From Methanobacteriota archaeon (GTDB taxonomy: Archaea > Thermoplasmatota > Thermoplasmata > UBA10834): 64,000 bases of DNA. Positions 18,871 to 50,718 of this stretch are shown in pieces. Within the stretch, counting starts at the first letter, position 1. Every line of letters begins with the position of its first letter. The notes under the pieces are model-generated. The model was not told the DNA's origin and made no database searches. It worked only from the letters and a program-made list of their open reading frames with translations. The position numbers and the translations under genes are program-made. The DNA is taken from contig DYTN01000004.1 in NCBI GenBank assembly GCA_020725925.1, positions 2,802-66,801 on the forward strand. Direction: 5' to 3'.

Positions 18871-18982
18871 TGCAGGTGCCGGGATTCGAACCCGGGCCGT
18901 TGGCTTTCGTCCCTCTCCATTTTATCTTCTTTCAACGGAGCGGCTGGAAGGCCAAGATCCTAACCAGCTAGATTACACCTGC
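18871..18982 (-). tRNA. tRNA-Gly (anticodon UCC) with an intron of about 40 nt (roughly 18905-18944) adjacent to the anticodon loop; no encoded CCA
   Basis: The reverse-complement strand folds. Acceptor GCAGGTG/CACCTGC. D-arm ATCT-AGCTGGTTA-GGAT. Anticodon stem TTGGC/GCCAA with loop CTTCCA(G) and anticodon TCC. T-arm CCGGG-TTCGAAT-CCCGG. Discriminator A. Confidence 0.75.
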
Positions 18983-19014: not shown

Positions 19015-19160
19015 CGTGATTGTGCGGCTCACTCCCCCATTGCTATCCCACTGGGCGAGCGGGCGGTGACCGGGATCTCGCGAGTACATCCTCATGGGTA
19101 GCACTCTTTGTCTTTCCACCCCGCAAGAAATAACATCCTCTGAGCCAATCACTCCATTCG

Positions 19161-20219
19161 TTGTCGCTGCTTTCCGACATACACAGAGCGGTCGAGGAGA
19201 CGTCCAGGAAACTCTTGCAGGTGTCCGTCCCGCCCGTCAAGTACTGGCTTCTCGTGGACACGCTCGAGAAGGACGAGAGGGACCCCCTCGTGCGGAGGAC
19301 CGTCGCTGAGTGCGCGACCTATCCTCCGAGGGACAAGCTCCTCAGGACCCTGGGGCCGGACGGGACCTGGCCGATATCCAAGGCCAGGAAGGCAGCTGAA
19401 GATGCGGGTCCTGGCCCTCCTGTCGGATGGACATATGTCACCATCCTCAGGAACCTGCAGCTCTTGGAGGACATGAAGACCGACAGGGAGGACGGGCACA
19501 TTGAGGCGGCCCTTGAGAGGATCCTCGGCTGGCAGTCGAAGGAAGGCTACATACTCGGCCCGAAGCACGACATCTTCCCGCTCCCCCACTACAACGGCTA
19601 CGCTGTGAGGAACCTCTTCATCTATGGTATGGACGACGACCCGCGTGTGAAGAGGCTTGCCGACTGGCTGCTCAGCATTCAGAGACCGGACGGCGGCTGG
19701 GCGATTCCCTATCTGCAGGATGTCAAGTATCTCCCCGAGTACAAGGACATGAAGACGCGCAACTTCCTGGAGCTCGTGCGAAAGGGCAAGACACCGAGAT
19801 CGGACCCGAAGGGATTCGAGGACGTTCCGAGCTGCATCTGGACCACGATGATGGTCGTTCGGGGCCTTGCCCGGGGGAAGGACTACCGGCCTCGGAAGGA
19901 ACTCCTGAGGGGGGCCGACTTCTTCCTCGACAGGTTCTTCAAGCCGAACTGGCACACGTCCTACTATCGCTCCGCGAAGTATTGGACCCAGCTGAAGTAT
20001 CCGCCTTGGCCGGGCAATGGGCTCACCGCCCTGTACCTTCTCACGATCCTCGGCTACGGCCCTGGGGACGAGCGGATGGAGAAGCCGATCAGATGGCTGC
20101 TGAGCACCAGGCATGGAGACGGTTTCTGGTGGCAGTCGGACAGGCCGCACGTCCAGAAGGACCAGTGGATAACTGGGTTCGCGGTCGATGTCCTGGCCAG
20201 ATGTGCGAGGAACCAGTAG
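19161..20219 (+). CDS. Prenyltransferase/squalene-oxidase-repeat protein (alpha-alpha toroid fold)
   Basis: Repeated QxxDGGW/DGxW-type motifs (RPDGGWAIPY, HGDGFWWQS, KEGYILG). High-GC, core-like composition. Confidence 0.45.
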   Translation: MSLLSDIHRAVEETSRKLLQVSVPPVKYWLLVDTLEKDERDPLVRRTVAECATYPPRDKLLRTLGPDGTWPISKARKAAEDAGPGPPVGWTYVTILRNLQLLEDMKTDREDGHIEAALERILGWQSKEGYILGPKHDIFPLPHYNGYAVRNLFIYGMDDDPRVKRLADWLLSIQRPDGGWAIPYLQDVKYLPEYKDMKTRNFLELVRKGKTPRSDPKGFEDVPSCIWTTMMVVRGLARGKDYRPRKELLRGADFFLDRFFKPNWHTSYYRSAKYWTQLKYPPWPGNGLTALYLLTILGYGPGDERMEKPIRWLLSTRHGDGFWWQSDRPHVQKDQWITGFAVDVLARCARNQ

Positions 20220-20551
20220 GTGGTCTCCGCGGCCGCCAAGGGTCGTCCTTCTTCAAGTGATAGGGTCATGACAAGCATGGGGCTCTGGACGACCTGAAGC
20301 CCAGGACTCACGAAACCAGCAAGAGAGAAGTGACCAGATGGGGGCAGGCCGACATCGAACTGACACATACTGACTAGATTTCAATCGGGCGGAATTGAAT
20401 TTCGGGAGAACGCACCAAACCTCTTTCTTTTTCTATGGATTTTCGTGATGATGATTCATTAGGGGTTCGAACACCATTGCATGCAAATCGTGTGCTCTTT
20501 CATGAACCATATCCGAAGTCAGTTCGTGTCGAGATTTCTGTCTTCGACTCT

Positions 20552-21553
20552 TTAAGCGACAAAAGCCGATGCCTTGTCCTTCCACCGACCAACGTATTCC
20601 GCAAACATATGCTCGCTGCTCTTGAAAAGGGAGACCGGTCTCCCTCTCTCTACTGAGAAGACGCCAATTTCAGCCATCTGTGAAGCTCGAGATAGGACTT
20701 TGCTCTGTGGTTTGGGCTTGATTCCGTAGAGTCTGTGCTGATACTCTGAGAGATCCTTGTCGCTCATCCCGAGTCTTCTGTCTGCGAAATATGACGGGAG
20801 ATAGTTTGAGTTTGTCAGTCTTATGAAGGGCGTTATGTGTGTAAAATGAAGGAGATCAGCCATATATGCATGACCCTTCAGAATCGATTCAGACAATACG
20901 GTTGCATAAAGGTCCTCCAAGCTGCTGTCTTCCTTCAACTTCCTCGCACCGATCTCTCCGAAAACGTACTGCCCATCTTCCTTCTTCAGAATCTCCAATT
21001 CCACAAGGAACCTCAGGTACTGATTGACCTTGGTCTTGGATCTCCTTCCGTGAACGAAATCTGAAGCCTTGACAGTGTTTCTCATAACCACATTCGTTAC
21101 TATCTCATAGAGCGGGTTCATCTGATTCCGGATCTGATACAGCCTAAGGAATCGGCCGCCAATCACGCCCAGTAGTGCTCCTTCAGAACTGCTTCTGAAG
21201 CTGCCGAACTTAGATTCGATTCGCTCCGCAACGAACTTGCGATTTGGCAAGTCCAAATGCCAGCCGCCTTCGTCATGATCCACCTTGGTCTCGAAGACAT
21301 CCCTGAAGGGAGTGAACCTGACCTTGAAGAATCCTTCAGACGCGTCCCAGAGGTGTTGCTCTTTGACCGTCCCAAATGAATACACTTCCTCATTTCTGGC
21401 AGATGGCAATTCAGATAGAAAGAAGGACGTCCCCATGGTCCTGCGAACCAATGCCTCCACTTCGCGGGTGGAAACCTTCTGAGTGGTTAGAGGAATCCTG
21501 ATTATTTCGGACTCAGCTTTCGAGTTAGTCATGGTTCGCACCCATAATCCCAT
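20552..21553 (-). CDS. Hypothetical 333-aa protein, downstream partner of the C39-like peptidase
   Basis: ATG-initiated ORF overlapping the 3' end of the peptidase gene by 29 nt, which suggests translational coupling. Low GC. No recognised domain. Confidence 0.5.
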   Translation of the reverse strand: MGLWVRTMTNSKAESEIIRIPLTTQKVSTREVEALVRRTMGTSFFLSELPSARNEEVYSFGTVKEQHLWDASEGFFKVRFTPFRDVFETKVDHDEGGWHLDLPNRKFVAERIESKFGSFRSSSEGALLGVIGGRFLRLYQIRNQMNPLYEIVTNVVMRNTVKASDFVHGRRSKTKVNQYLRFLVELEILKKEDGQYVFGEIGARKLKEDSSLEDLYATVLSESILKGHAYMADLLHFTHITPFIRLTNSNYLPSYFADRRLGMSDKDLSEYQHRLYGIKPKPQSKVLSRASQMAEIGVFSVERGRPVSLFKSSEHMFAEYVGRWKDKASAFVA

Positions 21554-22175
21554 ACTTGTCTAGTGGTCCAGCAGGTCTCTGAACCCACATCACCCAGCGG
21601 GTCTCTTTACCCTCATCCCAGTATTTCAGCATTCTCACATCGGGGAGTGAGTTCTTGAAGCTTATTGCTCTACTCATATGTCCGGCAAATGGTTTGTAGG
21701 GGTCATGAAACCATACCATGCCGTCTTCAATCGCAACGACAACGAGGACATGATCCAGAATCATGCCTTCGAGATTGACCGGTTGCTGAGTGTGGTATTC
21801 AGGGCTTACGCCGACAATTGGATAAGATGCTGCCTCATCTTCGATTATTGATTTCAGCATCTGGAGCGTATTTCCACGATCTGCCTTCTCGAATACCCTG
21901 AAGGGGCTCCGCTTCTTGGCCAGATGGCTGTTGATGCTGGGAGTGACCGTCCCAATGGCACACCCTACTCCCTTTACATAGCCACATAGCTCATGCATGG
22001 TGCTCATCTTGATTCTCAACTCAGGAGATCCGGTCCTGGTCGCCAGGTCATCAAAGATATTCTTGAGGCAGGTCGGCCAACAAGTGTCTTTCAGATGCTG
22101 GACTTGCCATTTTGATGTCAGAAGTTCGAACTCAATATCATCCATTGTACCAGGCCTTGATTGATTTGCGAGCAT
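21525..22175 (-). CDS. Papain-like (C39-like) cysteine peptidase
   Basis: Gln/Cys-Trp catalytic motif QHLKDTCWPTC and His motif DHVLVVVAIEDGMVWFHDP (HxVVV...DP, as in the peptidase C39 family). The ORF is open to 22223, where the ORF track calls a TTG start; the first in-frame ATG (MLANQ) is at 22175. Confidence 0.45.
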   Translation of the reverse strand: MLANQSRPGTMDDIEFELLTSKWQVQHLKDTCWPTCLKNIFDDLATRTGSPELRIKMSTMHELCGYVKGVGCAIGTVTPSINSHLAKKRSPFRVFEKADRGNTLQMLKSIIEDEAASYPIVGVSPEYHTQQPVNLEGMILDHVLVVVAIEDGMVWFHDPYKPFAGHMSRAISFKNSLPDVRMLKYWDEGKETRWVMWVQRPAGPLDKYGIMGANHD

Positions 22176-22838
22176 TCCCCCAGATGCAGAGTTGATTATG
22201 CTGCATGTACCTCTCCTAGGCAACTACGCAGCAATCGAGTACTATCAGATAAATCCTTCCTGTGCCTGGATGAGGTGCATCGCGACAGAAACGCACCATT
22301 CAACAACTCATGCTTGACGATGAACTCACATAACTGCCTGAGACACTTGCGGGGTTCACATTCTGATGCATATGAACCGGGCTTCATCGAGACTTCTTTG
22401 CCTGCAGAGATGATGTTCTGATTCTGAACTCGTAGGCGGTCTGGCAGGCATCAAACGCTTGGAGCCTTACACTGTTCAAAACAAGACTCGGGCCTCGGAA
22501 AAGACCTCTATGATGAAGTGTCCCCTGCGCCTGGTCTGAATCGATGTTGTCGTTCTTCTTGGTTTGCCTCCGGTCGGGTTTCAGTCTGATTGGAGTTCGG
22601 ACATGCCTCCATTTGCGGTTTTCCCGTGATATGGCCACTTCGTCCATTGTCAGGGATCATCCCCAATCCCTACGTCGCACTCATTGCGTGCAGGAAGAAG
22701 ACCGGGGTCCAATCCTTGACTGCGACGTGAGGTCTCTGGAACCGAGCATAGCATGGCCTCTCGCTTATTCGTAGTTTCGCCTCTTGACGCAGGCGAAGAC
22801 CCTCTTCCACATACCATCCTTGTGGGCATTCTCGGAAA

Positions 22839-23573
22839 TTGAATACGATGAAGGTCGCGTTTCGCGAAATGCATATAAATGAATCAGCACATAACTTGGT
22901 CATGACATTCAAGATTAGTCCGAAGTACGATGCCGACTATCTGAAGGGAGATTCTGATATCGACAAGAAGTTGGACGTTTTTGAGGATCGTACGAAAGGA
23001 TGGACCCTTGAATGGGCCAAGAGACTCAGCGAGACTGAGCACGCTGGCTTCGCCGCGCTTGCTATAGCTCTCACTTACTTTGAAGCTCATGCTATCTACT
23101 ATAAGGGTGAGAGTTCAAATCCCAATAAATCGAAACAATTCTTCCGCGATGCATTCATTGATGTTTATGGGCATCATGTTCTTGGGATGGACCTGGCTGG
23201 CCGAATTGCAGATAATGTGTATGACCAAGGACGTTGCGGACTCTTCCACGAGGGAATGACAAAGGCAAAATTGCTGTTGAGGGATGATAACGGATCTGTG
23301 ACCTACTCCGAGGATTTCAACACTCATGAGCTTGTTGAGATATCGATAAATGTTCAAGAGTTCGTAAAGGAAATCGAGGCACATTTCCAAGAATACATGC
23401 AGAGACTACGAAAAAGCAGTGAAGTGACGTTGCGCAGGGATTTCGAGAGGTCATGGGACCGGGACTATCAACTCTCCATTCAGGCTTTGAGACAAGGCAC
23501 ACCGACGGAGGCGGTCCCAAGCACTCCACCGAATCCGGCTGCATCAGGTTCTCATTTGAGAGGGAACCCATAG
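22839..23573 (+). CDS. Hypothetical 244-aa protein with a possible HEPN-like Rx4H motif
   Basis: QGRCGLFHEG contains R-x4-H. There is no other motif. Low GC. Confidence 0.4.
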   Translation: MNTMKVAFREMHINESAHNLVMTFKISPKYDADYLKGDSDIDKKLDVFEDRTKGWTLEWAKRLSETEHAGFAALAIALTYFEAHAIYYKGESSNPNKSKQFFRDAFIDVYGHHVLGMDLAGRIADNVYDQGRCGLFHEGMTKAKLLLRDDNGSVTYSEDFNTHELVEISINVQEFVKEIEAHFQEYMQRLRKSSEVTLRRDFERSWDRDYQLSIQALRQGTPTEAVPSTPPNPAASGSHLRGNP

Positions 23574-23664
23574 TGCCCATTCTGCCGGGATCTGGACCCG
23601 GCGCGAGCTACACATCCTTTTTCTGATCTCAATCAAGTGGCGAATGTGCTCGCAGTTGAAACGC

Positions 23665-24966
23665 TTACTGTGGGGCTGGATTGCCCACAATTGATGCCTC
23701 GATTTGGCGAATCATTTCATCGCGAGATTGAATTTGATCCTTCAGGCACTTGCACAAGGCCTCTCGAGTAATCTCCTCCATGGCCGACGTTTGAGCCATA
23801 AGCTTGCTCTGGTCAAGATTTCTGGCGCCATGCAAGAGAAGTCCTCGTGCACGGTAAGCCTCCTTGACGGTGGCACGAATCTTCTTTCTTTCGACCGGTT
23901 CGGTCCCCAGGAAGTGAGCGATTCTCAGGCTGAGTCTATATGCGAACTCTCCGAATTCGACATCCTCTCCGAACAGCGATTCACAGGCAATCCAGTAATC
24001 AACCAAGGCTTCGTCCGGCCGTGGCCTGTCCACTGCATCACAGAATCTCTGAAGAGCCACCTTCCAGAAGGGAGGCTGTTTTTCTGCAATCTGTTCTACT
24101 AGCTTCCAGTAATGCCTAAGTCTAGGCAGACTCTGACTTTGGAGTGTGTAAGGTCTGCCAACTATTCTCCGTCGTGGGTAGGCAGTGCCTACGCGAACCG
24201 ACATGCCAGTCCAGCTCAGTGGTCGGCACCAGATAGTATCAAACCCTACTGACCCCGTCTCAGTCAACTTCATGATAGCTACGAACCACCAAAAGCAGTC
24301 TTGGTGCGTCTGTGTGAGTGCTGGGAAACCCCGCTTGACGACTGCTGTCATTTCAAGCACGAATCTCAGATGCCCGAATGGGAAGATTCTCGCTAGCGAA
24401 TCAGAGTCTGCTGCGATGCCATTGTACACAGCAAACTCATCAGCGTTCAACTTGCGAATGTTGAAAGGACCGACACGCTCCATGTCTGCTTCCATGGCGA
24501 AGTTGGCAAGCGGAGCTGAGAGGAGGTACTCGTCTTCCTCGCTGTTTAGGTAGTCTTCGAATGACTTGTAGTTCGATTCAAACTCTGCTTCCTTGAACTC
24601 GACGCCATCTTGCATGATTAGCTGGCGCGTAATCATTGGCTGGAGAATGTTGTATGCAAATGCCATGGGAACTACAGACGCTCCTTTGTCTTTGAGCAGA
24701 CTTGCTATGCTGCCGTGCCGAAGGAGGCCATTGGTCAAGGCTTCATTGGTCTTGTCATTGACGAAATCCAACGCAGTCGTTGCAGCAAGCAGTCGAAAGT
24801 CAGGCTTCGATTCTGACCCTACTGAAAAGGAACCATCCTTGCCAAACTCCACCTTGGGAACAAGCCTCTGTGGGAGTCCTCCTCTTCGGAGCACCGAGTC
24901 CCTAAGGACGCTCATGTAGCGAACAGTGAGGTCCTTGAGGGCGTTATACAAGATCTGATCTCGCAT
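23665..24966 (-). CDS. HEPN-domain abortive-infection-like protein (Abi/Apea-like)
   Basis: The C-terminal region YRLSLRIAHFLG ... KEAYRARGLLLHGARN contains the canonical HEPN Rx4-6H motif. Size is 433 aa. It lies in the low-GC island. Confidence 0.5.
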   Translation of the reverse strand: MRDQILYNALKDLTVRYMSVLRDSVLRRGGLPQRLVPKVEFGKDGSFSVGSESKPDFRLLAATTALDFVNDKTNEALTNGLLRHGSIASLLKDKGASVVPMAFAYNILQPMITRQLIMQDGVEFKEAEFESNYKSFEDYLNSEEDEYLLSAPLANFAMEADMERVGPFNIRKLNADEFAVYNGIAADSDSLARIFPFGHLRFVLEMTAVVKRGFPALTQTHQDCFWWFVAIMKLTETGSVGFDTIWCRPLSWTGMSVRVGTAYPRRRIVGRPYTLQSQSLPRLRHYWKLVEQIAEKQPPFWKVALQRFCDAVDRPRPDEALVDYWIACESLFGEDVEFGEFAYRLSLRIAHFLGTEPVERKKIRATVKEAYRARGLLLHGARNLDQSKLMAQTSAMEEITREALCKCLKDQIQSRDEMIRQIEASIVGNPAPQ

Positions 24967-25369
24967 GCAGAGGGTACACTGACCTCGAGCTTGATGAGGA
25001 AATCGGTTGCTGTGACGCCCTTCCTTCTCTAGAGGCTTTTCCGATTGCTCAAGGCTACTTGTTGAGTATCATGCTCCTCTCAGAACCACCCGAAGGAAAG
25101 TTTCTGTCTTGTTGATGTTTCCTTTCCCAAGGATGTTATGATGAAGTGGTCCCCTGTCAGATGGAGACTTCAGCATAGACGCTTTGCTAGGGCCGACTTC
25201 CTCGTATCCTTTTAACTTCGGTTAAATGATCAATAGAACGAAGACCGAAGAGGAACATGGGAATCTGACGAGCATGCGAAGGAGGAATTCCCGATTGTTA
25301 AGAATGCCGGACATCCGGTGAAGCATTGATGGTGCAAGTGTTTTCAATTTGCCGACAAACGGGCCTCGA

Positions 25370-25580
25370 TGTCTATGGAAAACATCGAGAACTCATGAGA
25401 ATGGGAAAAGACAACGGAAGAAGAGTCGAGACGGCACGAGCCTTTTTCATACGAGAAAATCCTCATGTTTTTCCATGGTTTTCCATAATTCTCAATGACT
25501 CTCATAGCTCATCTGAGATTCGCTGGCAAGAGCCTCAAATGAGGGTCTTTTCTCAATGATCTTTCCATTGATTCTCATGC
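25370..25580. repeat. Non-coding repeat locus A: a cluster of short motifs (CATGAGAA, ATTCTCAATGA, TTCCATGG), homologous in inverted orientation to locus B at 41640-41960
   Basis: Locus A 25477-25510 is GGTTTTCCATAATTCTCAATGACTCTCATAG. The reverse complement of locus B 41847-41884 is GGTTTTCCATAtgggatAATTCTCGTGACTTTTCCATAG. Locus A 25541-25575 (reverse complement CATGAGAATCAATGGAAAGATCATTGAGAAA) aligns with locus B 41735-41765 (CATGAGAACCATTGAGAATCTATGGAGAAAT). Confidence 0.6.
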
Positions 25581-25915
25581 GCTTATCAGATTACCTGGCA
25601 AGAAGCGTATGCGAGAGATTTTCTTCGGAGTGAGCGATTGCTCTTGTGTGAAGCACGTGCCGAGGCATCTCCTCCTCATGAAACCGTTCGGCGGTGAAGA
25701 ACCGACTTGACTCTTCAGTCCGATCGGTTGGAATTGAAATCGTGCTTTGGTTATCTGGCTAAGGGCTTGATCGGGCCCAGTTTGACTCACCGAGGTCCAT
25801 ACTGAGGGAGAAGCGGCGAAAAGTTGTATTCCCGAGAAGATCTGCGATCGGCATTCAGCCAGTATTTCGAGTTCAACCACTGTCCCTCGCCACTTGGCTC
25901 CAGTAGGATCAAGCA

Positions 25916-26950
25916 ATGTATGTCTGGCTAGAGCGGTTTCGTGTCTCGCCGCCGACTCCGAGACCAACGGCATACGTTTCATATCGAATGATTTACAATA
26001 CCCATCAGCTCGGTATGCCGAACATTCGCAAATCTGTATTCGGCTCAAGGTCGGAAAGGAATCTGTACGCTACTCTTACTTCTAGATGGTCCAACCGTTT
26101 CAACGTTTACCCGAACCTTCCTTTCCTCAATATCATCGAAGTCAAGAAGAACGAACTGCCCGTCTTCGACTTTGAGGTTTTGAAGAAATCGAGCGTTGAT
26201 TACACACTCTGCACCAAGGATGACGCACCCGTTCTATCAATCGAATTCGATGGACTCGGCTACGGCTTCTCCCGAGATGGGAAGTACGTTCCCGTCGTCT
26301 ATGACATTCCCGACCCATACAGGCAGGAAAAGATGAATCGAAAATTGAGGGCCGCCGACAAAGCGAATTACCCTCTCGTAATACTGTCCTATTTCGAGAA
26401 GGAACCGATCGGCAAAGATCTTCAGATAACCTTGGTTGACGGAATCATCGGACAGATCCTTTCGAGACGACGGTTTGATGAACTGATGAATGAACGTCTC
26501 AAGGAGGAACCCGACATTCTGTCAAGACTATCCAAACGGGAGATGGATGACCTGATTGATGGCATCGAGATAGAGGCAGATTTCGAGGAGAATCCTCTTT
26601 CGCGGAAGGCGGCAATCGCTGAGGTGGAAGCTGTGAAGCGAGGCCTCTTGAAACGATGGTCATTCCATTATTTTGAGGAGCCTACTGCACCTGACCTCCT
26701 TTCCTGGCCGCCTGATCCTGAATCTCTTTCACGGAGAATTGATGCACTCAGGAACGCCGAATGGATTGGTGCTCGTATTGTTTCTGACACCCCTTCTGGG
26801 ATAGTATTGGAAACCGCAGCGAAAATCCGGAGCATCTCGGGCCATGGAGTCTCTCCCTTGATTCTCGTTGAGGATATCGTCAGACTTCTGCATGCAACGA
26901 AACTGCTGGACGACCACACTGAAGAGATCCCTAACAGAACCTCAACCTGA
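25916..26950 (+). CDS. DUF2726/NERD-like PD-(D/E)xK-type nuclease-related protein
   Basis: VDYTLCTKDDAPVLSIEFDGLGYGF fits the DUF2726 core (DF-hl...p-l-IE-DG), recalled from memory. 344 aa, low GC, next to the methyltransferase. Confidence 0.35.
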   Translation: MYVWLERFRVSPPTPRPTAYVSYRMIYNTHQLGMPNIRKSVFGSRSERNLYATLTSRWSNRFNVYPNLPFLNIIEVKKNELPVFDFEVLKKSSVDYTLCTKDDAPVLSIEFDGLGYGFSRDGKYVPVVYDIPDPYRQEKMNRKLRAADKANYPLVILSYFEKEPIGKDLQITLVDGIIGQILSRRRFDELMNERLKEEPDILSRLSKREMDDLIDGIEIEADFEENPLSRKAAIAEVEAVKRGLLKRWSFHYFEEPTAPDLLSWPPDPESLSRRIDALRNAEWIGARIVSDTPSGIVLETAAKIRSISGHGVSPLILVEDIVRLLHATKLLDDHTEEIPNRTST

Positions 26951-27027
26951 GAGGTCTCCTATGCCATCGCCGCGTCCAGTATGATTGGCCCGGTGACGGT
27001 CATCTGACGACGCGCTCTCGTTCTCAC

Positions 27028-28563
27028 TTATGAAGAGTGCTCAGATAGCCTCGACTGTTTCTCCCTCTTCGCCAGCGGCTGTTTCTTCGCCTTTGGAGCT
27101 TGTGTGAATGTGGGATTGGTCTCCCTTGATGATACTGAATCAGGGCACTCAACCTTCTTGCCCTTCAATAGGTCTTCTATCGTAAGTAGCTGGATTCTCG
27201 GGTACTTCGGATTCCCAAGTTCTTTTGAAGTATAGAATCCCGCATCGGCGGCTTCAGAACGCATCTGTGGGGTGGGCTCGTTCAGACTGATCAACACGCC
27301 AATTGCAGCCTTCTCACGATCCACGACTCCATGTAGGTCTCTGACGTGGGCTGATGTTACATTGCCGGCCTTCACCGAGAATATGATTTGCTCCGACTTG
27401 GACCTCTCCACGAAGAAGTATAGGCGGCCGTCGATTCCCTTGTCAGCGCCCTTCTTCTGCTCGACGGGTCTAGCGCCTACTAGTCCGAGAGCCCACCATT
27501 GGAATTGGTATGGGTCTTGCTGGGCCAGTGCCTGCGCATCAGGTAGCGATACTGGTTCCCCAATCACCGTGTAGGATACCGTCTCTCCAAAAGCATCCTT
27601 GAGGCGATGTCTCATGAGTGTGATCGCAAGATGGGTGATATCAATTCCAATCCACTGTCTCCTCAGACGCTGGGCAACAGCAATTGTGGTCCCACAACCG
27701 CAGAACGGATCAAGCACCAAATCGCCCTCATTGCTACTCGTCGAGATAATCCGCTCAAGTAGACTTTCGGGCTTCTGAGTGGGATACCCAAGCCTCTCCT
27801 TCTTTGAGCCTGCAATGATTGATAATTCCCACACATCTCTCCGAGGCATGCCCCGAGTCTCCGCCTCCAACGTTATCTTCCTTGTTCCAGTCTCTGGGTC
27901 CAGCATCTGTGTCTTACCCTTGAACCTCTTCCAGTAGCTCTCGCTGACTGGTTCGTAGTCGACATTAAAGGTAATCGTTTGATTCGGGTCTCTCACATAG
28001 AAGAGAATCACGTCGTGCATGCGCTGATACATCTTCGAAGGCGTCGGCCACCTCCGATAGCTCCAGATGATTTCATTCTTGAAACAAGCTGGACTAAAGA
28101 CGGCATCCATAAGAATCTTGAGATGATGGCTTGCCGTTGGATCGCAATGCAGGTATATCGTCCCAGCTTGCTTGAGGACTCTCTTCATCTCGATTAGTCG
28201 GGGCGCCATCATTGATAGATAGGCGAGCATGTCGTTTGACCTGAGGATTCTTCTAAAAGCCTCCATTGTGTCTGCAAGCCTGCCGCCAAATGTGAGTGCA
28301 TCTTCGAATGCTTTGGCAGCTGCTTGGTCCCAATGCCAGGTGTCCTCAAAGGCCATGATTTGGGCTGCGGAACTGCTTCCATTGTGTTCCTTGAAAAGTA
28401 CGTTGTAATCTTGACCACTCTGAAAAGGTGGGTCAAGATAGATCAGATCAACGGTCTCGTCCTTGATGTACCGCTTGAGAATGTCGAGGTTGTCTCCGTA
28501 ATAGAGCATGTTTTCGGCTTTCCCTTCTGGCGTGTCCATCGTGTGGGAAATGGCTATTTGCAT
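27028..28563 (-). CDS. Beta-class N6-adenine/N4-cytosine DNA methyltransferase fused to a C-terminal Mrr-like restriction-endonuclease domain
   Basis: Motif IV DPPF (IYLDPPFQSGQDYN) precedes motif I (VLDPFCGCGTTIAVAQRL), which is the beta-class order. The C-terminal 150 aa carry KGADKGIDGRLYFF ... IIFSVKAGN, resembling the Mrr catalytic core (GIDG ... QxK-like). Confidence 0.7.
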   Translation of the reverse strand: MQIAISHTMDTPEGKAENMLYYGDNLDILKRYIKDETVDLIYLDPPFQSGQDYNVLFKEHNGSSSAAQIMAFEDTWHWDQAAAKAFEDALTFGGRLADTMEAFRRILRSNDMLAYLSMMAPRLIEMKRVLKQAGTIYLHCDPTASHHLKILMDAVFSPACFKNEIIWSYRRWPTPSKMYQRMHDVILFYVRDPNQTITFNVDYEPVSESYWKRFKGKTQMLDPETGTRKITLEAETRGMPRRDVWELSIIAGSKKERLGYPTQKPESLLERIISTSSNEGDLVLDPFCGCGTTIAVAQRLRRQWIGIDITHLAITLMRHRLKDAFGETVSYTVIGEPVSLPDAQALAQQDPYQFQWWALGLVGARPVEQKKGADKGIDGRLYFFVERSKSEQIIFSVKAGNVTSAHVRDLHGVVDREKAAIGVLISLNEPTPQMRSEAADAGFYTSKELGNPKYPRIQLLTIEDLLKGKKVECPDSVSSRETNPTFTQAPKAKKQPLAKREKQSRLSEHSS

Positions 28564-28788
28564 ATTAAGACAAGTGCTACCCGGAGGCTACACCGAAGGG
28601 CCATTGAGTCAATTCGCCCCAGCCCTTCTCGATCGGCAAATTCAAACCCGTTGCTTTGGCAGGCGTTCCTCTGAGTGTCATATGGTTTCTCAGTAAGTTG
28701 TACTGTATGACGAATCCGTCCAAAGCGTTCCCCGCACCGATTCTGCTTCCAAATCTTCTTACCTCCTTGAAGGAAAAGACTACTTAGG

Positions 28789-29019
28789 TTGACCTCACTA
28801 CCAGATTGGACGCTTGATATGGCAATAGTAAAGAGCCTGGGTATCACCGGTGGCGTTGTACTCGCAGTCTTCATTGCGGCGTATTTGTTTCTGCAGGCAG
28901 GGCAGTTCTTCAAAGAACTGAAGAAGGTTGGCTACGATCTTCTTGCCTTCGCTATTGTTATCGTTATTGTTGTCATAGCCGTGGTCCTGGCCATCGAATG
29001 GATGAAACACAGAAGCTGA
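28789..29019 (+). CDS. Small membrane protein with two predicted TM helices (76 aa)
   Basis: Hydrophobic stretches GGVVLAVFIAAYLFL and LLAFAIVIVIVVIAVVLAI. Confidence 0.3.
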   Translation: MTSLPDWTLDMAIVKSLGITGGVVLAVFIAAYLFLQAGQFFKELKKVGYDLLAFAIVIVIVVIAVVLAIEWMKHRS

Positions 29020-29105
29020 GTCAGGGCGGGTCGAATGCCCACCAAGGAGTCCTCCTTACTCAGCACAAGGTCCATATGGAAGAATAGAAGATACGGTAGA
29101 GCTTT

Positions 29106-29522
29106 ATGCAACTATCGCGTTATCGCACTATCGCAGGCAATTGGGAGAGGAGCGAGATGGCAAAAGCAACAATGACGATGCCCTCTGGAACAACGGTTGT
29201 GATCGAAGGCTCAGAGGGGGAAATCGAAACTATACTCCGACGAATCGATAAGGCACCTGAGAAGAGTCGCGCTCGGACAACCGAGCGATCGAAAGGCCGC
29301 AAAGGAGAGTCCGAGAAAGCTCTCGGGGACTACGTCTTGGAGCTGCGAGAGGCCGGCCTCTTCGAGAAGCCGCAAGGACTCGCCGACATCAAGAACGCTC
29401 TTCAGGCCGAAGGGCATATTGTCCCCATCACTACATTGTCAGGGGTCATGCTCAGAAGGGTCAAGAACCGCGAGCTGCGTCGATTCAAAGAAGAGAAGAC
29501 TTGGAAGTATGTCAAACGATAG
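29106..29522 (+). CDS. Small basic protein (138 aa), paralog of the next gene; probable winged-helix-like domain
   Basis: Shares the pattern LRxxGxFxxPxxxxxxxxLxxExHxxPxxxxxxxxxRxxxRxLRR with the 29562 ORF. Confidence 0.4.
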   Translation: MQLSRYRTIAGNWERSEMAKATMTMPSGTTVVIEGSEGEIETILRRIDKAPEKSRARTTERSKGRKGESEKALGDYVLELREAGLFEKPQGLADIKNALQAEGHIVPITTLSGVMLRRVKNRELRRFKEEKTWKYVKR

Positions 29523-29561
29523 AAAACGTATATCTGCACACCTAGTCTGGAGATGTGATTC

Positions 29562-29900
29562 ATGAAAGCCAAGATTGAAGTTGTTGACGGCAACGGCAGA
29601 GTCTTTGTTGGCATGACCGAACTTGTTGAGTCTACGCAGAAGCGTCGCAAACCATCGACGGGAGTGCCAACCGAAATCCGAAAAGAATTTTCACTGCCTG
29701 ACAGAATTGTTCAACTGAGGGACCAAGGTTTCTTTTCAACACCGAAGACGAGTCCAGAGGTTCATAAGGAATTAGCCAAGGAATATCACTGCGAGCCAGA
29801 TCGTGTAACCATGGCCCTAGGGCGTCTTCAGACAAGGAACCAACTTCGCAAAGCATCAGCAACGTTCGAGGACAAGAAAGTCAATGCTTACACATGGTGA
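29562..29900 (+). CDS. Small basic protein (112 aa), paralog of the previous gene
   Basis: Collinear similarity to the 29106 ORF (RIVQLRDQGFFSTPKTSPEVHKELAKEYHCEPDRVTMALGRLQTRNQLRK). Confidence 0.4.
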   Translation: MKAKIEVVDGNGRVFVGMTELVESTQKRRKPSTGVPTEIRKEFSLPDRIVQLRDQGFFSTPKTSPEVHKELAKEYHCEPDRVTMALGRLQTRNQLRKASATFEDKKVNAYTW

Positions 29901-29933
29901 AGGGTGTAGACGCACATACTACGAGAGGATTCC

Positions 29934-30737
29934 ATGGAAATAACCAAACAAGCAAGAATCGAAATGGAATCAAAGAAACTCGCAATGAAGATTCGGAATG
30001 TGAAGAGCGAACTTCCTGATATTCACTCGCTTCAGAGCCCGCTACACAAGTCACTGTGGGCACTCGCGGCAGCTAAGGAGGCAGGGGAGGACAGACCTCT
30101 GACATCGCAGAGAATGAGGATTCTTCTCGAGGTGTTCGATGTGGCAATCACGGACAGTCAGATCACAAACGCCCTGTCCAGATCCGGGGACAAGATCATC
30201 AGGAAGAATCGCGATGGAGTGCGAGGATACAAGATTGCCTTCACCGGTAAGACAGCTCTCATGAATACCGCTGGTGGGGAAGGTATCGAGGTGATATATG
30301 CAGAACCCGGCAACCGATGGAAGGCGCGAAGGCAATTGAGTGAACTTGCTGGCTCATTGAAGGGAGACCTTCTAGCTGTCGACAAGTATTATGGAGAGAG
30401 GACCCTGTACACACTCGAAACTCTAGCTAATCGCAAAGAGAATGTGCGATTCATTACATCCCATACAAGAGAGAATGCGCAGAAGCTCTCTGCGCTCTTT
30501 GGAGACCTCATGAATGCCAAGCCGAACTTGGAGGTTAGATTGTATTCCGGGAAGCATGACCTGCATGATAGGTACATCCTGTCAGACGATGCTCTTGTAC
30601 TGGTTGGTCACGGCCTCAAGGATTTGGGAGCGAGCGAGTCGTTCGTTGTTCGACTTGACACCAGGGTTGTCGGTGAACTCATGTCGCTTGTACGATGTAG
30701 TTTTGAAGATCGTTGGAGCAAATCGACTCCCATTTAG
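29934..30737 (+). CDS. Hypothetical 267-aa protein with an N-terminal wHTH-like region and a possibly divergent PLD-like (HxK to HxR) C-terminal motif
   Basis: C-terminal SGKHDLHDRYILSDDALVLVGHGLKD loosely resembles the HxKx4Dx6GSxN phospholipase-D/nuclease motif, with Arg in place of Lys and GHG in place of GSxN. The N-terminal region resembles the two small upstream proteins. Confidence 0.35.
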   Translation: MEITKQARIEMESKKLAMKIRNVKSELPDIHSLQSPLHKSLWALAAAKEAGEDRPLTSQRMRILLEVFDVAITDSQITNALSRSGDKIIRKNRDGVRGYKIAFTGKTALMNTAGGEGIEVIYAEPGNRWKARRQLSELAGSLKGDLLAVDKYYGERTLYTLETLANRKENVRFITSHTRENAQKLSALFGDLMNAKPNLEVRLYSGKHDLHDRYILSDDALVLVGHGLKDLGASESFVVRLDTRVVGELMSLVRCSFEDRWSKSTPI

Positions 30738-30845
30738 ACACATGGAAGAAGGAGAGATGTTCGTGCCGGCTGACCCCTTGAACAAAAAAAAAGAAGTTTA
30801 GCTCGGTGCTAAGATCGCGAAATTGAAATTTAGCCAATATCGAAA

Positions 30846-30866
30846 GTTCAAATCCGGCTCACTGCA
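30846..30866 (+). other. tRNA 3'-end-like fragment (GTTCAAATCCGGC TCACTGCA); possible att-site remnant at the right island boundary
   Basis: A 13-nt identity to the T-arm of tRNA-Pro (GTTCAAATCCGGC) is followed by an acceptor-3'-like tail. No upstream tRNA body is present, because the preceding CGAAAG cannot form a T-stem. Confidence 0.35.
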
Positions 30867-31264
30867 AGAAAATGACACGGAAAGGAATTGTTCCCTTCGA
30901 CTTCTTCGTATTCTAGTTATGGTGCGGTCGACCAATCCGCTTTCGATTGCAGCGGCAATCTTCCTGCGGCGCATGAATCTAGGGGTTGGTCGATTATCTC
31001 GTGTCCTAGACCTCTGCAACGATTCTAGCGCGCTAATCGGGGCCTCCCTCAGCCTTCGAACAGATCAAGCCAGTGTCTCAAGAAATGAGGGAAAAACTGC
31101 AATTTACATGAACGGTCAAAGGGGCTTATGTCCTTCACCTGGCACATTCTTGACATACTGGCTTCGTACCTCCCATAAAGGTTAATATGGGACGGCATCG
31201 TTGGTGGCGCTCACGAACAGAGCAAGGTTCCAGATCGACATTCTTATCAGAGCCAGGGGGAAGC

Positions 31265-32293
31265 ATGCTGAAGAGCGGTTTCGTGCCGAGGATTCTGTCC
31301 TGGAACACCACTAACAGATGTAATCTCAAATGCGCTCACTGCTACATGGATGCGAAGGACAGAGCGAGCACTAACGAGCTCACGACTGATGAGGGCAGGA
31401 AGCTCATAGACGAGATTTCTGAGGTTTCCAAGTGCGTCCTCGTTCTCAGCGGCGGGGAGCCGATGCTGAGAGCAGACATCTACGAACTGGCTGCTCACGC
31501 GAGATCCAAAGGACTCCGGGTCGTCATGGGCACGAATGGTACCTTGATTTCAAGAGAGGCTGCGAGGAATCTAGTCTCGGCAGGAGTATCCAGAGTCGCC
31601 ATATCCCTGGACGGGTGCGATGCGGCAATGCACGACTCGGTCAGGAGGGTTGAGGGTGCGTTCGAGGCCGCAATTGCGGGTGCGGAGGCCTGCAGGACCG
31701 CAGGTCTCGAGTTCCAGGTGAACTCGACGGTTTTCCCCCACAGCTTCAGTAGGATTCCTGACACTATCAGGACCGCGAAGAGAATCGGTGCGGCGGAGTT
31801 CCACCTGTTCTTTCTCGTCCCCACTGGTAGAGGTGTGTCCTTGAAGGACGTCGGCCCTTGGGACTACGAGAACATGCTACACCAGCTCTTGCCTCTTGAG
31901 AAGGAGGTCGGAATCCACATAAAGCCGACCTGCGCTCCGATGTACATGCGGGTATCCAAGCAGAGAGGAGGGAACGCCACAGAGAGATACTCACGGGGCT
32001 GTCTGGCCGGGATTTCGTACTGCAGGATAAGTCCGGAGGGAGGGGTTTACCCGTGCCCGTACCTGCCACTGGAGGTCGGCAGCGTTCGATCCCACAGCTT
32101 CGGAGAGATCTGGTTCAACGCACCCTTGTTCGCCGACCTGAGGAACTTCTCAAAGCTCAAGGGGAAGTGCAGAGTGTGCGAATTCAACGATATCTGCGGT
32201 GGCTGTAGGGCGCGGGCGTACGCGCTCGCTGGCGACGTTCTCGCTCCTGATCCGTGGTGCGTTCATGTGCCCAAGAGGAATCGAAATGGTTAG
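31265..32293 (+). CDS. Radical-SAM/SPASM enzyme of the AhbC/AhbD (NirJ-like) family: Fe-coproporphyrin III synthase or heme synthase
   Basis: CNLKCAHCY (CxxxCxxC) radical-SAM cluster motif and a C-terminal Cys-rich SPASM region (CRVCEFNDICGGCRARA), in an ahb/hem cluster. The start is more likely the MLKSGF methionine than the ORF-track start at 31187. Confidence 0.7.
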   Translation: MLKSGFVPRILSWNTTNRCNLKCAHCYMDAKDRASTNELTTDEGRKLIDEISEVSKCVLVLSGGEPMLRADIYELAAHARSKGLRVVMGTNGTLISREAARNLVSAGVSRVAISLDGCDAAMHDSVRRVEGAFEAAIAGAEACRTAGLEFQVNSTVFPHSFSRIPDTIRTAKRIGAAEFHLFFLVPTGRGVSLKDVGPWDYENMLHQLLPLEKEVGIHIKPTCAPMYMRVSKQRGGNATERYSRGCLAGISYCRISPEGGVYPCPYLPLEVGSVRSHSFGEIWFNAPLFADLRNFSKLKGKCRVCEFNDICGGCRARAYALAGDVLAPDPWCVHVPKRNRNG

Positions 32294-32780
32294 AGGACAT
32301 CCCGACTATCTTGACAAGAAGCTGGTCGCTGAACTCCAGCTGAGGTTTCCCCTGACAGAGAGGCCGTTCGAGGAAGTGGGGAGGCGACTTGGACTTTCGG
32401 AGGCGGAAGTGCTGAGCCGAACCCGGGAAATGATCCGCGAGGGAATCGTCCGGAGAATCGGATACATGGCGGGGAAGAGTCTTCAGAAGATGAAATCGAG
32501 CACACTCGTCGGAATGAAAGTCGAGACGGACAGAGCTGACTGGGCAGCGTCGGTCATCAGCAACTACAGAGAAGTCACCCACAACTATCTCCGAGACAAC
32601 GAACTCAATCTTTGGTTCACGGTGAGCGCATCCGACCGAGGACGTCTCGAGGACGTGGTTCGGGAAATTGTGACGAAAGTGCGGCCGCTCGACTGGATCG
32701 AGCTGCCATCCGTGAAGTCCTTCAAGCTTCTCACACCATCTGTCGGCATTTCCGAACAGGGGGTATCTTCACTTGGCTGA
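32286..32780 (+). CDS. Siroheme decarboxylase subunit (AhbA/AhbB, NirDL-like Lrp/AsnC fold)
   Basis: LDKKLVAELQLRFPLTERPFEEVGRRLGLSEAEVLSRTREMIREGIVRRIGY matches the NirD/L/G/H pattern. The ATG overlaps the upstream stop codon. Confidence 0.65.
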   Translation: MVRGHPDYLDKKLVAELQLRFPLTERPFEEVGRRLGLSEAEVLSRTREMIREGIVRRIGYMAGKSLQKMKSSTLVGMKVETDRADWAASVISNYREVTHNYLRDNELNLWFTVSASDRGRLEDVVREIVTKVRPLDWIELPSVKSFKLLTPSVGISEQGVSSLG

Positions 32781-33228
32781 CCTCACGATTCTAAGGGCAG
32801 TGGAAGACGGCATCGAGATGGTACCGAGGCCCTTCGAGGCAGCTGCGAAAAGGGCCGGCACTGACGAGGAGTCTGTGGTTCGCGAATTGAAAACTGTGCT
32901 CGAAAATGGCACGATACGCTTCTTCGGGGCGATCGTGGACCACAGAACTCTCGGGAAGCTCGTCAATGCGATGGTCGCGTGGGATGTGGAGGACAGCGCG
33001 GTAGATTCAGTCGGCAGGTCGTTCGCCGCAATCCCGATGGTCAGCCACTGTTACGAGAGGACGAGGGTTCCTGGCAAGTGGAAATACAACCTGTTCACAA
33101 TGGCTCACGCTGGGAACGAAGATGAACTCGAAGCGTTTCTCAAGGAGGGGCGTCGCCTGACGACAGGCGCAGACTGCATCGTGCTCAGGACCCTGAAAGA
33201 ATACAAGAAGACGGGGGTGAAGTTCTGA
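32773..33228 (+). CDS. Siroheme decarboxylase subunit (AhbA/AhbB), second paralog
   Basis: Same family (LTILRAVEDGIEMVPRPFEAAAKRAGTDEESVVRELKTVLENGTIRFFGA). Tandem with the previous gene. Confidence 0.65.
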   Translation: MADLTILRAVEDGIEMVPRPFEAAAKRAGTDEESVVRELKTVLENGTIRFFGAIVDHRTLGKLVNAMVAWDVEDSAVDSVGRSFAAIPMVSHCYERTRVPGKWKYNLFTMAHAGNEDELEAFLKEGRRLTTGADCIVLRTLKEYKKTGVKF

Positions 33229-33248
33229 AGTCGTCACTTGTCCCTCTG

Positions 33249-33863
33249 ATGATAGATTTCAATGGGAGGTTGGTGATCATCATCGGAGGAGGGCAGGTTG
33301 GTCTCAGGAAGGCGAGTGTCTTCTGTCGCGCAGGAGCTGATGTGCGCGTGATCAGCAAGGATTTCGCGAAGGGATTCAAGAGACTCCCCGCGAAGCTTGT
33401 GAAGGTCAGGAACTTCGAAGACCTGGGGTTGCTGAAGCATGCGTTCCTCGTGGTTGCAGCCACGAACGACCATGACCTGAACTCGCAAATCAAGCGCTCG
33501 TGCCGAGAGGCGGGAGTGATGTGCAACTCAGTGGACGACGAGGATTCAGATGTGTACCTTCCCTCAATCATCGCGCGAGGTCCCCTGACCATCTGCATAA
33601 GCACCCGTGGTGCGAGCCCAGCCCTTTCAAAGAGAGCCCGAATCATGATAGAGGAATTCATAGGGCCTGAATGGGGAAAGATGGCCGTCCTGTTGGCCGA
33701 GGCTAGAGTGATGCTCAAAAGCTCAATTGCCGCTCAGTCGTCGAGGAAGGAGGTCCTGAGTGGGATCCTCAATGACAAGGCAATATGGTCACAGCTGAGG
33801 AAAGGAGACATCGCAGGGGCGCGACGAACGATAACCAAGAGGCATCTGGAGGGAGGCAAGTGA
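33249..33863 (+). CDS. Precorrin-2 dehydrogenase / sirohydrochlorin ferrochelatase (SirC/CysG N-terminal domain-like)
   Basis: NAD-binding motif LVIIIGGGQVGLRKASVFCRAGADVRVI. At 204 aa the size is typical for SirC. Confidence 0.65.
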   Translation: MIDFNGRLVIIIGGGQVGLRKASVFCRAGADVRVISKDFAKGFKRLPAKLVKVRNFEDLGLLKHAFLVVAATNDHDLNSQIKRSCREAGVMCNSVDDEDSDVYLPSIIARGPLTICISTRGASPALSKRARIMIEEFIGPEWGKMAVLLAEARVMLKSSIAAQSSRKEVLSGILNDKAIWSQLRKGDIAGARRTITKRHLEGGK

Positions 33864-35119: not shown

Positions 35120-35120
35120 A

Positions 35121-36101: not shown

Positions 36102-36104
36102 GCG

Positions 36105-40971: not shown

Positions 40972-41109
40972 GTCCTCATAGCCCACGTCCAATCCAGGAG
41001 AGCTCAGGAGTTTGGATTCGGAAATGACTCTGAGGGCAGGCAGCAATCACGCGGACAGACCCGGAACGGTTATATGAAGTGTTCAGGATTCCTCAGGTCA
41101 AGACCGGAG

Positions 41110-41406
41110 CGCCCGCCCGGCGAACGGGAGACACCGGAGTTGCACGACATCCTCATCACACACGGAAAGGTCATAGACGGGACCGGGTCGCTGGTTGCGC
41201 TCTTGGATGTGGCCATCGACGGCACAAGGATTTCAGGCCTGTACAAGCATTCGGGGGGAAGGCGTCGATTACAATCGACGCCGAGGGAATGGTCGTCTGT
41301 CCGGGATTCATAGACATACACTCGCATTCCGAACTCGCACTCCTGGCAAACCCGCTGGCTAAGAGCAAGATCAGGCAGGGGGTGACGACTGAGCTCGTTG
41401 GCAACA
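41110..41406 (+). pseudogene. Frameshifted, 3'-truncated amidohydrolase (N-acyl-D-amino-acid deacylase/dihydroorotase-like) gene remnant
   Basis: Two frames encode HDILITHGKVIDGTGSLVALLDVAIDGTRI and then ITIDAEGMVVCPGFIDIHSHSELALLANPLAKSKIRQGVTTELVGN, the conserved N-terminal 100 aa of D-aminoacylase-type amidohydrolases. The reading frame is lost after GN at about 41407, where AT-rich non-coding DNA begins. Confidence 0.6.
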
Positions 41407-42731: not shown

Positions 42732-42738
42732 CCGCGAC

Positions 42739-50717: not shown

Positions 50718-50718
50718 C

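Follow-up and report, generated by a model that had tools for sequence, protein, structure and literature searches.

What kind of DNA forms the block of low GC (guanine plus cytosine) content that interrupts a GC-rich chromosome segment of an uncultured Thermoplasmata archaeon, and where does this DNA begin and end? The block lies in a 64,000-nucleotide (nt) stretch of contig DYTN01000004.1 (assembly GCA_020725925.1), referred to here as the window. It had initially been described, at positions 20,250-31,190, as an island of defence genes between imperfect direct repeats, with a tRNA-like fragment at its right end, and was taken for an integrative element that has lost its integrase. We found that the flagged block is foreign, element-associated DNA that was horizontally acquired, and that it is the tRNA-distal part (10.5 kb) of a rearranged 27.1-kb insertion, 20,339-47,469, next to a tRNA-Pro gene. 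The evidence supports a tie of the block to tRNA-directed integration. With a probability of about 0.75, the 27.1-kb region is a composite that was built at tRNA-Pro by tyrosine-integrase elements of an uncharacterised Thermoplasmata family.

Insertion between two tRNA genes

The HMG-CoA synthase (HMGS) of the right flank was used as query and gave 80 metagenomic loci. A search with the protein of the left flank gave matches only in uncultured Thermoplasmata. Two related loci, L016 and L019, carry both flanks of the window on single contigs, in the order TPR protein, small gene, short gap, tRNA-Pro(CGG), helix-turn-helix (HTH) protein, HMGS, thiolase and onward. The flanking proteins of L016 and L019 are similar to those of the window (HMGS 88% and 84% identical, HTH protein 91% and 89%, TPR protein 71% and 66%, respectively). 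DNA homology with these two loci breaks off at about 19,022 and restarts at the very 3' end of tRNA-Pro, at 47,458. The slot between tRNA-Gly(UCC) and tRNA-Pro(CGG) is 28.4 kb long in the window (19,023-47,457), 2.4 kb in L016 and 0.9 kb in L019. It holds a GNAT-type acetyltransferase (assigned by inspection of the sequence) and two membrane proteins in L016, and a DUF169 protein in L019. This slot is an insertion hot spot. It is delimited by the following tRNA genes:

18,871-18,982, minus strand: tRNA-Gly(UCC), intron-containing, 112 nt (Rfam tRNA model, 54.8 bits)
47,458-47,531, minus strand: tRNA-Pro(CGG) (ARAGORN and Rfam)

The left core flank is conserved up to and including the tRNA-Gly(UCC) gene, which is found also in L016, L019 and L107. 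This gene was called by Rfam and not by ARAGORN in bacterial mode, for which tRNA-Pro(CGG) is the only tRNA of the window. The tRNA-Pro gene stands beside the HTH-HMGS pair also in L016, L017, L019, L020, L022 and L100.

The initial annotation had expected the block to be missing from otherwise syntenic relatives, and L016 and L019 are indeed without it. What these loci lack is not limited to 20.25-31.19 kb and comprises all of 19,023-47,457. The empty site that had been predicted, with the gene at 19,161-20,219 joined to 31,265 and onward, was not seen. Instead, the relatives have tRNA-Gly(UCC), 0.9-2.4 kb of unrelated genes and tRNA-Pro. The prediction was wrong because the gene at 19,161-20,219 and the haem operon that starts at 31,265 are likewise absent from this locus in L016 and L019. 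Homologues of the gene at 19,161-20,219 that are 79% identical (L001-L005) lie in unrelated, non-syntenic contexts and hold no information on the empty site. None of the island genes or haem genes of the window was found in 95 related loci (L001-L095), except for the last 24 codons of the integrase, in L004.

Attachment core and arms

The core of the attachment site (att) is TGGGGTAGGCCG, the 3'-terminal 12 nt of tRNA-Pro (47,458-47,469), and this proximal copy is attR. Its counterpart at the far end, attL, reads TGGGGGCAGGCCG and is a degenerate direct copy of the core in the same orientation as tRNA-Pro. The pair brackets 27.1 kb. Both cores are accompanied by an arm:

20,339-20,351, no strand: distal att core (attL), placed by alignment with the junction in L004 and the tRNA-Pro end of the window
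20,352-20,435, plus strand: left-end arm of the element, with the palindromic motif ATTTCAATCGGGCGGAATTGAAT, the 18-mer GGGAGAACGCACCAAACC and a pyrimidine tract (comparison of L004, L017, L101 and L109)
47,394-47,457, plus strand: right-end arm of the element, which encodes the last 24 integrase codons and contains ATTTCAATCCGGCGAAATTGAAA (88% identical to L004 9,281-9,356; conserved in L100 and L101)

The same arrangement was found in related loci. L004 has a stretch corresponding to window 47,394-47,469 (88%) that runs straight into one corresponding to window 20,341-20,434 (79%), which gives right arm, core and left arm in succession. L017 carries a 2.6-kb insert flanked by exact 12-nt cores. 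In L101, the element is 9.8 kb long and lies between 14-nt repeats; its arms are the same and its core is different. L004 and L017 have the left-arm 18-mer without a mismatch, and L101 and L109 have it with 3 mismatches. The distance of the 18-mer to the core is 64-66 nt in L004, L017 and L101 (65 nt in L017). The two conserved arms are mutually inverted around the core. The att brackets at 20,339 and 47,469, taken together with this family evidence, place the flagged block within the 27.1-kb region.

The 14-15-nt repeats that had been reported at both edges of the block are present, GCGGAATTGAATTT at 20,389-20,402 (1 base off the position first given) and GCGAAATTGAAATTT at 30,817-30,831. The left repeat lies inside the palindrome of the left arm. 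With three mismatches or fewer allowed, the repeat motif had 6 matches in the window where 0.56 were expected, and none of 100 shuffled sequences reached 6. A better third copy is located at 47,425-47,439 beside tRNA-Pro, related copies lie at the ends of two 0.6-kb repeats described below, and the motifs are found also in L004, L017, L100, L101 and L109. Judged by these comparisons, the repeats are not an att duplication. They are conserved integrase-arm motifs of a Thermoplasmata element family and distinct from the att core, from which the left one lies 50 nt inward. Because a hairpin had no significant stability (z about 0), the palindromic arm motif is more likely to be a protein-binding site (predicted).

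Integrase and its family

The integrase had been considered lost. It is present at the tRNA-proximal end of the region, though an 8-nt deletion disrupts it:

46,190-47,465, plus strand: tyrosine integrase gene, in two frames (Pfam Phage_integrase; homologue alignment)

The deletion, at about 46,520 and outside any homopolymer, shifts the reading frame. Full-length homologues have 400-423 amino acids (aa). Residues 8-115 of one of them, P0122, align to frame +2 (46,190-46,522) and residues 118-423 to frame +3. The deletion falls between the conserved motifs PFY and THKER, where the window has 1 base and the homologues have three codons. The open reading frame of 314 aa with the Phage_integrase match (46,521-47,465) has an ATG start that was created by the deletion, and is without the conserved GRFPFL...PFY segment. 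At its 3' end, the gene runs for 8 nt, among them the stop codon, into the att core and the tRNA-Pro gene. As only these 8 nt are in the core, integration leaves the integrase gene unsplit. The catalytic signature, read by eye without structural alignment, is R...KxxR...Y (...WKDFRPTY..., KDFR). Since the integrase is frameshifted and attL is degenerate, the region is predicted to be immobile now, and probably is.

We collected 65 homologues of the integrase, which are 29-71% identical over the whole list and 41-71% in the closest 46. Those with a source annotation come from metagenome-assembled genomes (MAGs) of Thermoplasmata or Methanobacteriota. L100 has the integrase, arm, tRNA-Pro(CGG), HTH and HMGS genes at the same site as the window, and in L103 the integrase overlaps tRNA-Pro(UGG). 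The element of L109, about 10 kb long, carries a D5-type primase-helicase and DarT-Macro cargo. The L101 element is followed by a further island with N6_N4 methyltransferase, GmrSD and HEPN genes. Scans of viral contigs with the integrase and with the left-arm 18-mer gave no match and no sign of the element being viral. The integrase/att family appears to be undescribed and, as far as seen, confined to uncultured Thermoplasmata.

Composition of the region

Composition was compared with a core reference, made of 1-kb windows of the two flanks (GC 0.619 ± 0.020). The sharp fall in GC that had been noted by eye is real: the first low-GC block (20,339-30,866) has a GC of 0.496 (z = -6.0). Its tetranucleotide profile, a check that had been proposed along with GC, correlates with the core at r = 0.75, as compared to 0.94-0.96 for 10-kb chunks of the core against the rest of the core. 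The following segment, 30,867-41,461, which holds the haem operon and an amidohydrolase fragment, has a GC of 0.567 (z = -2.4) and r = 0.886. A second low-GC block, 41,462-47,457, has a GC of 0.526 (z = -4.7) and r = 0.74. The two low-GC blocks are alike in tetranucleotide usage (r = 0.906). In the sliding profile, GC is about 0.62 up to 20 kb, about 0.49 at 20.3-31.2 kb, 0.55-0.58 at 31.2-41 kb and about 0.50-0.56 at 41-47.5 kb, and it is back at core level beyond 48 kb. The low-GC stretch thus does not end at about 31.2 kb; GC stays below that of the core until the tRNA-Pro gene at 47,458.

Inner scar and inverted repeats

Three features inside the region bear on its history:

25,209-25,782, plus strand: repeat Ra, 574 nt, iteron-rich and non-coding in appearance (self-comparison)
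30,817-30,866, no strand: internal att scar, consisting of an arm motif and a tRNA 3'-end-like fragment (sequence comparison)
41,462-42,115, minus strand: repeat Rb, inverted copy of Ra, 654 nt, with an 80-bp insertion (self-comparison)

The tRNA 3'-end-like fragment is where it had been reported, at 30,846-30,866. Its first 13 nt, GTTCAAATCCGGC, are identical to the T-arm of tRNA-Pro(CGG), with the fragment on the plus strand, opposite to the tRNA gene. The core of the scar points opposite to both the left core and tRNA-Pro. This inversion rules the fragment out as the straightforward right-hand att counterpart of the left repeat. The scar is probably the result of integration of a related element into another tRNA gene, because the acceptor strand TCACTGCA fits neither tRNA-Pro nor tRNA-Gly. 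A candidate parent tRNA would end in GGTTCAAATCCGGCTCACTGCA. The outer side of the scar is the DNA upstream of the haem operon, and no tRNA that might be the parent was found upstream of the haem operon in L096-L099. A tRNA-His beside the homologue of a flank gene in L002 was rejected as parent, its 3' end being unrelated. We also rejected a reading of the scar as an inverted left-end (attL-type) junction, as the scar scored equally weakly with both kinds of end, 2-8 with 10 right ends and 0-9 with 4 left ends (shuffled sequences 3.2 ± 1.9). As the two arms mirror each other, the scar cannot be assigned to the L-type or the R-type.

The combination of an arm with a forward tRNA 3' end, as in the inner scar, was found also in L107 and L109. 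Together with L108, L107 (10,001-12,297) represents the same chromosomal locus as the left flank of the window (TPR protein of L107 66% identical, neighbours 72-82%). Here the end of the integrase is joined to a forward tRNA-Pro 3' end and to the native flank (DUF169 protein, tRNA-Gly, small gene, TPR protein). The arrangement implies a chromosomal rearrangement with its breakpoint at the att site. Orientation flips at these att sites thus occur in the family, since L107 shows one. On its other side, the element adjoins pyridoxal-synthesis genes and not HTH-HMGS.

Repeats Ra and Rb align in two segments, at 84% and 78% identity, and have exact matches of up to 38 nt. They have no Rfam family and no copy in any of the related loci retrieved, and a possible role in the element family is that of an origin or of regulatory DNA. 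The short motifs TTTCCATA, GATTCTCA and CTGGCAAG are iterated in these repeats, and an arm-like GGAATTGAAATC lies at one end.

History of the region

In the history that we propose, the integrase would bind the inverted arms and swap strands within the 12-nt core. Integration would regenerate the tRNA and leave a copy of the core at the far end. At least two related elements, together with recombination or inversion between them, may have given the present order, and recombination between the inverted 0.6-kb repeats is one candidate event. The scar at the right edge of the flagged block would stem from a second, related integration event, with the core pointing the other way, and the haem operon may have come in as DNA flanking one of the elements. 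Of the integrative element without an integrase that had been proposed, the horizontal acquisition and the tRNA-directed integration are thus kept, and the boundaries, the repeats, the role of the fragment and the loss of the integrase are not.

Several points weigh against this composite history. No single simple history accommodates all features. The left core is imperfect, with a substitution and an additional base within its 12-13 nt, and the acceptor part of the inner scar matches neither tRNA of the window. The 0.6-kb repeats, about 80% identical, are a poor substrate for homologous recombination, and when the inversion is undone they are still oppositely oriented relative to their element ends. 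PADLOC found no complete known defence system in the region. The haem operon is 69-72% identical at the DNA level to that of the MAG DBS2-1.bin12, near the 72-75% of core genes. Lastly, all evidence comes from one MAG contig, in which a mis-join at repeated element sequences could have occurred.

One alternative is the reading first proposed, a self-contained 10.9-kb element at 20,250-31,190 that is bounded by direct repeats, lies between the gene at 19,161-20,219 and the haem operon, and has lost its integrase. The low-GC block is indeed sharply bounded and uniform in composition, and the 10.5 kb from the left core to the inner scar equal the size of complete family members (L101 9.8 kb, L109 about 10 kb). 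The right repeat also lies in direct orientation to the integrase-proximal arm and shares 18 of 20 positions with it, so an adjoining integrase could have been deleted. However, arm motifs of this kind recur at 47,425 and in each of the 0.6-kb repeats, and the tRNA-like core at 30,846 points opposite to the left core. In addition, the integrase at 46.2-47.5 kb belongs to the matching family and carries the matching arm. The relatives, which lack the haem operon and the gene at 19,161-20,219 at this locus, contradict the empty site that such an element predicts. We consider this alternative unlikely. Still less likely is an assembly artefact, in which at least two related Thermoplasmata populations were joined at shared element sequences and both the composite structure and the position of the operon are unreal. 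It would fit the metagenome-assembled source with its single contig, the three composition classes (0.50, 0.57 and 0.62) that switch exactly at repeated element sequences, and the exact stretches of up to 38 nt that the 0.6-kb repeats have in common. Yet these repeats are too divergent for mis-joins at the usual final k-mer sizes, and the outer att core and arm pair match as one integration predicts. Moreover, the contig returns to the same chromosome region after 28 kb, as both outer flanks are collinear with single contigs of L016 and L019.

The composite history can be given a more specific form, a tandem array with one inversion, which we regard as possible but doubtful. The original order would have been attL, element 1 (first cargo module, repeat, amidohydrolase fragment, haem operon), a middle att, element 2 (second half of the flagged block, repeat, UbiA module, integrase) and tRNA-Pro, and recombination between the inverted repeats would have flipped 25.8-41.5 kb. 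Undoing this inversion makes all three tRNA-like cores co-oriented and gives an element 2 of 11.1 kb, which is typical of the family and has its integrase at the tRNA. Junctions of right arm, core and left arm are known in L004 and L109, and L107 has an inverted junction at the same locus. On the other hand, the outer side of the middle att is the DNA upstream of the haem operon, where a right arm is expected, and the acceptor part of the middle core differs from tRNA-Pro at 5 of 8 positions. The divergence of the two repeats also argues against this order, as does their orientation relative to the element end, which differs between the two reconstructed elements.

Cargo of the first low-GC block

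The first block of the composite region is made up of the left arm and two cargo modules, with repeat Ra between them, and carries the following genes:

20,552-22,223, minus strand: two overlapping genes for proteins of 333 aa and 232 aa, no family match
22,902-23,573, plus strand: 223-aa protein with the motif RCGLFH (Rx4H) (homologue alignment)
23,665-24,966, minus strand: 433-aa protein with a C-terminal HEPN-fold domain, motif RARGLLLH (fold)
25,916-26,950, plus strand: DUF2726-like protein, similar to PD-(D/E)xK-type nucleases (Pfam PF10881, E 5e-5)
27,028-28,563, minus strand: N6/N4 DNA methyltransferase with a C-terminal Mrr-type restriction-endonuclease domain, possibly inactive (Pfam, PADLOC)
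29,106-30,737, plus strand: three-gene cassette for proteins of 138 aa and 112 aa and a 267-aa protein with a PLD-like/MIT_C-like C-terminal domain (PADLOC, Pfam)

The gene labels of the initial annotation stood in part. The methyltransferase-Mrr fusion is a solid assignment by profile matches (Pfam N6_N4_Mtase 6e-49, NA-iREase1 2e-10 and Mrr_cat 2e-8; PADLOC MTase_II 6e-62). The 433-aa protein has the four-helix fold with an Rx4-6H motif that characterises HEPN domains, so one of the two HEPN labels is supported by fold. Its family is very rare, with 16 homologues in 5.8 billion proteins. The second label, on the 223-aa protein, holds as HEPN-like by motif only. This protein had no Pfam or PDB sequence match, and its single-sequence structure model had a pLDDT of 46. 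Its family is widespread (953 representative homologues), with R111 invariant, C112, G113 and H116 nearly so, and RCGLFH kept across 52 aligned homologues. The DUF2726 match is sub-threshold, at 23.4 bits and under the Pfam cut-off of 24.7. The PLD label of the 267-aa protein (29,934-30,737) is weak, with MIT_C and PLDc_2 as weak Pfam matches besides the PADLOC candidate PDC-S05 (3e-11).

The 232-aa protein had been labelled a peptidase, based only on a Cys/His motif read by eye. No tool supports this label, and both the 333-aa and the 232-aa protein were without a match in Pfam, NCBIfam, PADLOC, PHROG and PDB sequences. The 138-aa and 112-aa proteins (29,106-29,900) had no family match in any library. 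Read from their sequences, these two look paralogous, with a common C-terminal winged-helix-like segment. PHROGs gave two sub-threshold matches only, of unknown function, and three cargo proteins had only chance-level matches to PDB sequences. Most probably, the cargo acts as a defence of the restriction/abortive-infection type (predicted). The methyltransferase-Mrr fusion would be a module of the modification/restriction type, the HEPN proteins may be RNases of the abortive-infection/toxin type, and the DUF2726-like and PLD-like proteins putative nucleases.

Haem operon and second low-GC module

The remainder of the region contains an operon of an essential pathway, a truncated gene and a second cargo module:

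31,265-40,971, plus strand: 11-gene haem operon, sirohaem-dependent (Ahb) route (Pfam)
41,079-41,438, plus strand: truncated amidohydrolase gene, with only its 5' part left up to the edge of repeat Rb (Pfam Amidohydro_3, profile positions 2-51 of 472)
42,739-45,891, minus strand: second low-GC cargo module, with a membrane protein, a UbiA prenyltransferase and a small winged-helix-like protein (Pfam UbiA 3e-30; weak PadR and F-93_WHD)

The operon encodes an AhbD-like radical SAM protein, two NirDL-like proteins, sirohaem synthase, HemA, HemB, HemL, HemC, CobA, HemD and an AhbC-like radical SAM protein. This is the domain set of an Ahb cluster, and the enzyme activities are predicted from it. 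The gene order is the same in L096-L099, in contexts unrelated to that of the window. DBS2-1.bin12, the MAG from which both L096 and the syntenic left flank of L006 come, has the operon on another contig, at genome-typical GC, where it lies between an MFS transporter and a PKD-domain protein with histidine-biosynthesis genes. In the window, the operon has a GC 5 points below that of the host core, with an att scar at one end and a truncated gene at the other. The truncation of the amidohydrolase gene at the edge of the inverted repeat marks an illegitimate junction that closes the haem segment. Because the divergence of the operon from that of DBS2-1.bin12 is near that of core genes, its sequence gives no sign of foreign origin, which is indicated only by its position and mildly deviant composition.

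A tentative suggestion, which we rate as somewhat improbable, is that the complete operon was captured by the tRNA-Pro-specific Thermoplasmata element family and travels with it. It would have been acquired as neighbouring DNA of an earlier integration site, of which the tRNA fragment is the scar.

A motif of 28-32 nt, GTCAAAGGGGCTTATGTCCTTCACCTGGCACATT, lies upstream of the first haem gene (31,116-31,149). It recurs with 88-96% identity in intergenic positions of unrelated island loci (L104 5,021-5,052 and 13,486-13,513; L105 5,828-5,855).

Flanking segments

The segment between tRNA-Gly(UCC) and attL is absent from this locus in the close relatives L016 and L019:

19,023-20,338, plus strand: lineage-specific segment with a prenyltransferase/terpene-cyclase-like gene at 19,161-20,219 (weak SQHop_cyclase repeats only)

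The gene was not found at this locus in L016 and L019 and is present in L006. In L004 (2,821-5,820), a homologue sits between two copies of the left-end motif of the element. The segment is probably older island cargo outside the att-bracketed region. At 19,023-19,045, where homology to the relatives ends, the sequence GTGCGGCTCACTCCCCCA has CGGCTCACT in common with the inner tRNA-like scar (30,855-30,863). This stretch may be a further tRNA-derived scar, left by an older insertion that brought in the gene at 19,161-20,219.

On the right flank, HMG-CoA synthase, thiolase and a small downstream gene (48,445-51,236) form an archaeal-type trio of the mevalonate pathway. The small gene after thiolase corresponds in L100 to a zf-ChsH2/OB_ChsH2_C protein. 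The trio is highly syntenic across Thermoplasmata and is a useful anchor for finding the tRNA-Pro hot spot.

Relation to known elements and significance

Genomic islands that are integrated at tRNA genes and carry defence-type cargo are well known in Archaea (PMC5126054, PMC2718499, PMC8371274), so the finding of a tRNA-linked island with defence genes is in itself ordinary. Known examples include tRNA-targeting islands and integrated plasmids with a non-split (pNOB8-type, 'type II') tyrosine integrase, such as PYG1 of Pyrococcus yayanosii (PMC5126054), and the classes have been reviewed (PMC8371274). Like the tRNA-targeting pNOB8-type islands, the region has its integrase beside a tRNA gene, the tRNA 3' end duplicated as att and the integrase gene intact after integration, and it shares with them atypical composition, absence from relatives and variable cargo. 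Unlike in those islands, the integrase gene shares its last 8 nt with the att core and the arms form an inverted pair around the core. The catalytic consensus is R...YxxR...Y in pNOB8-type and R...KxxR...Y in SSV1-type integrases (PMC8371274), and the integrase of the window has KxxR (KDFR), not YxxR. With SSV-type ('suicidal', type I) elements (PMC7253208, PMC8371274) it shares the KxxR signature and an att within the integrase reading frame. It differs from them in that the gene is not split by integration; its reading frame is unbroken through the right arm, and the disruption is the 8-nt deletion.

The cargo resembles that of defence islands, in that genes of the restriction-modification type, HEPN, nuclease-like and orphan genes are clustered in mobile-element-linked low-GC DNA, and the relatives of the element carry DarT-Macro, GmrSD, HEPN and restriction-modification genes. 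In contrast to such islands, PADLOC gave no complete system and most genes of the window are uncharacterised. The inverted element- and tRNA-derived sequences at junctions (the inner scar, L107) are reminiscent of the integrase-driven inversions of Thermococcales (pTN3 integrase; PMC5495485), whereas only 16 kb are concerned here, as compared to hundreds of kb, and there is no sign that the integrase rather than recombination of the 0.6-kb repeats was the cause. The haem operon has the domain set of archaeal Ahb clusters and the 11-gene order of L096-L099, and unlike those clusters it lies inside an att-bracketed element region.

The rare 433-aa HEPN family and the widespread Rx4H family of the 223-aa protein are candidate new defence genes. 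An operon of an essential pathway, haem synthesis, in an element-bracketed region is a concrete candidate case of an archaeal metabolic operon that was relocated or transferred by an element. If the operon was indeed captured, haem autotrophy would be a horizontally mobile trait in these archaea, and the symmetric att arms would let the integrase flip DNA between inverted sites. The undescribed integrase/att family now has a defined core, two defined arms, tRNA-Pro as its target and a typical size of about 10 kb. The family is common in uncultured Thermoplasmata and could serve to delimit islands in their MAGs.

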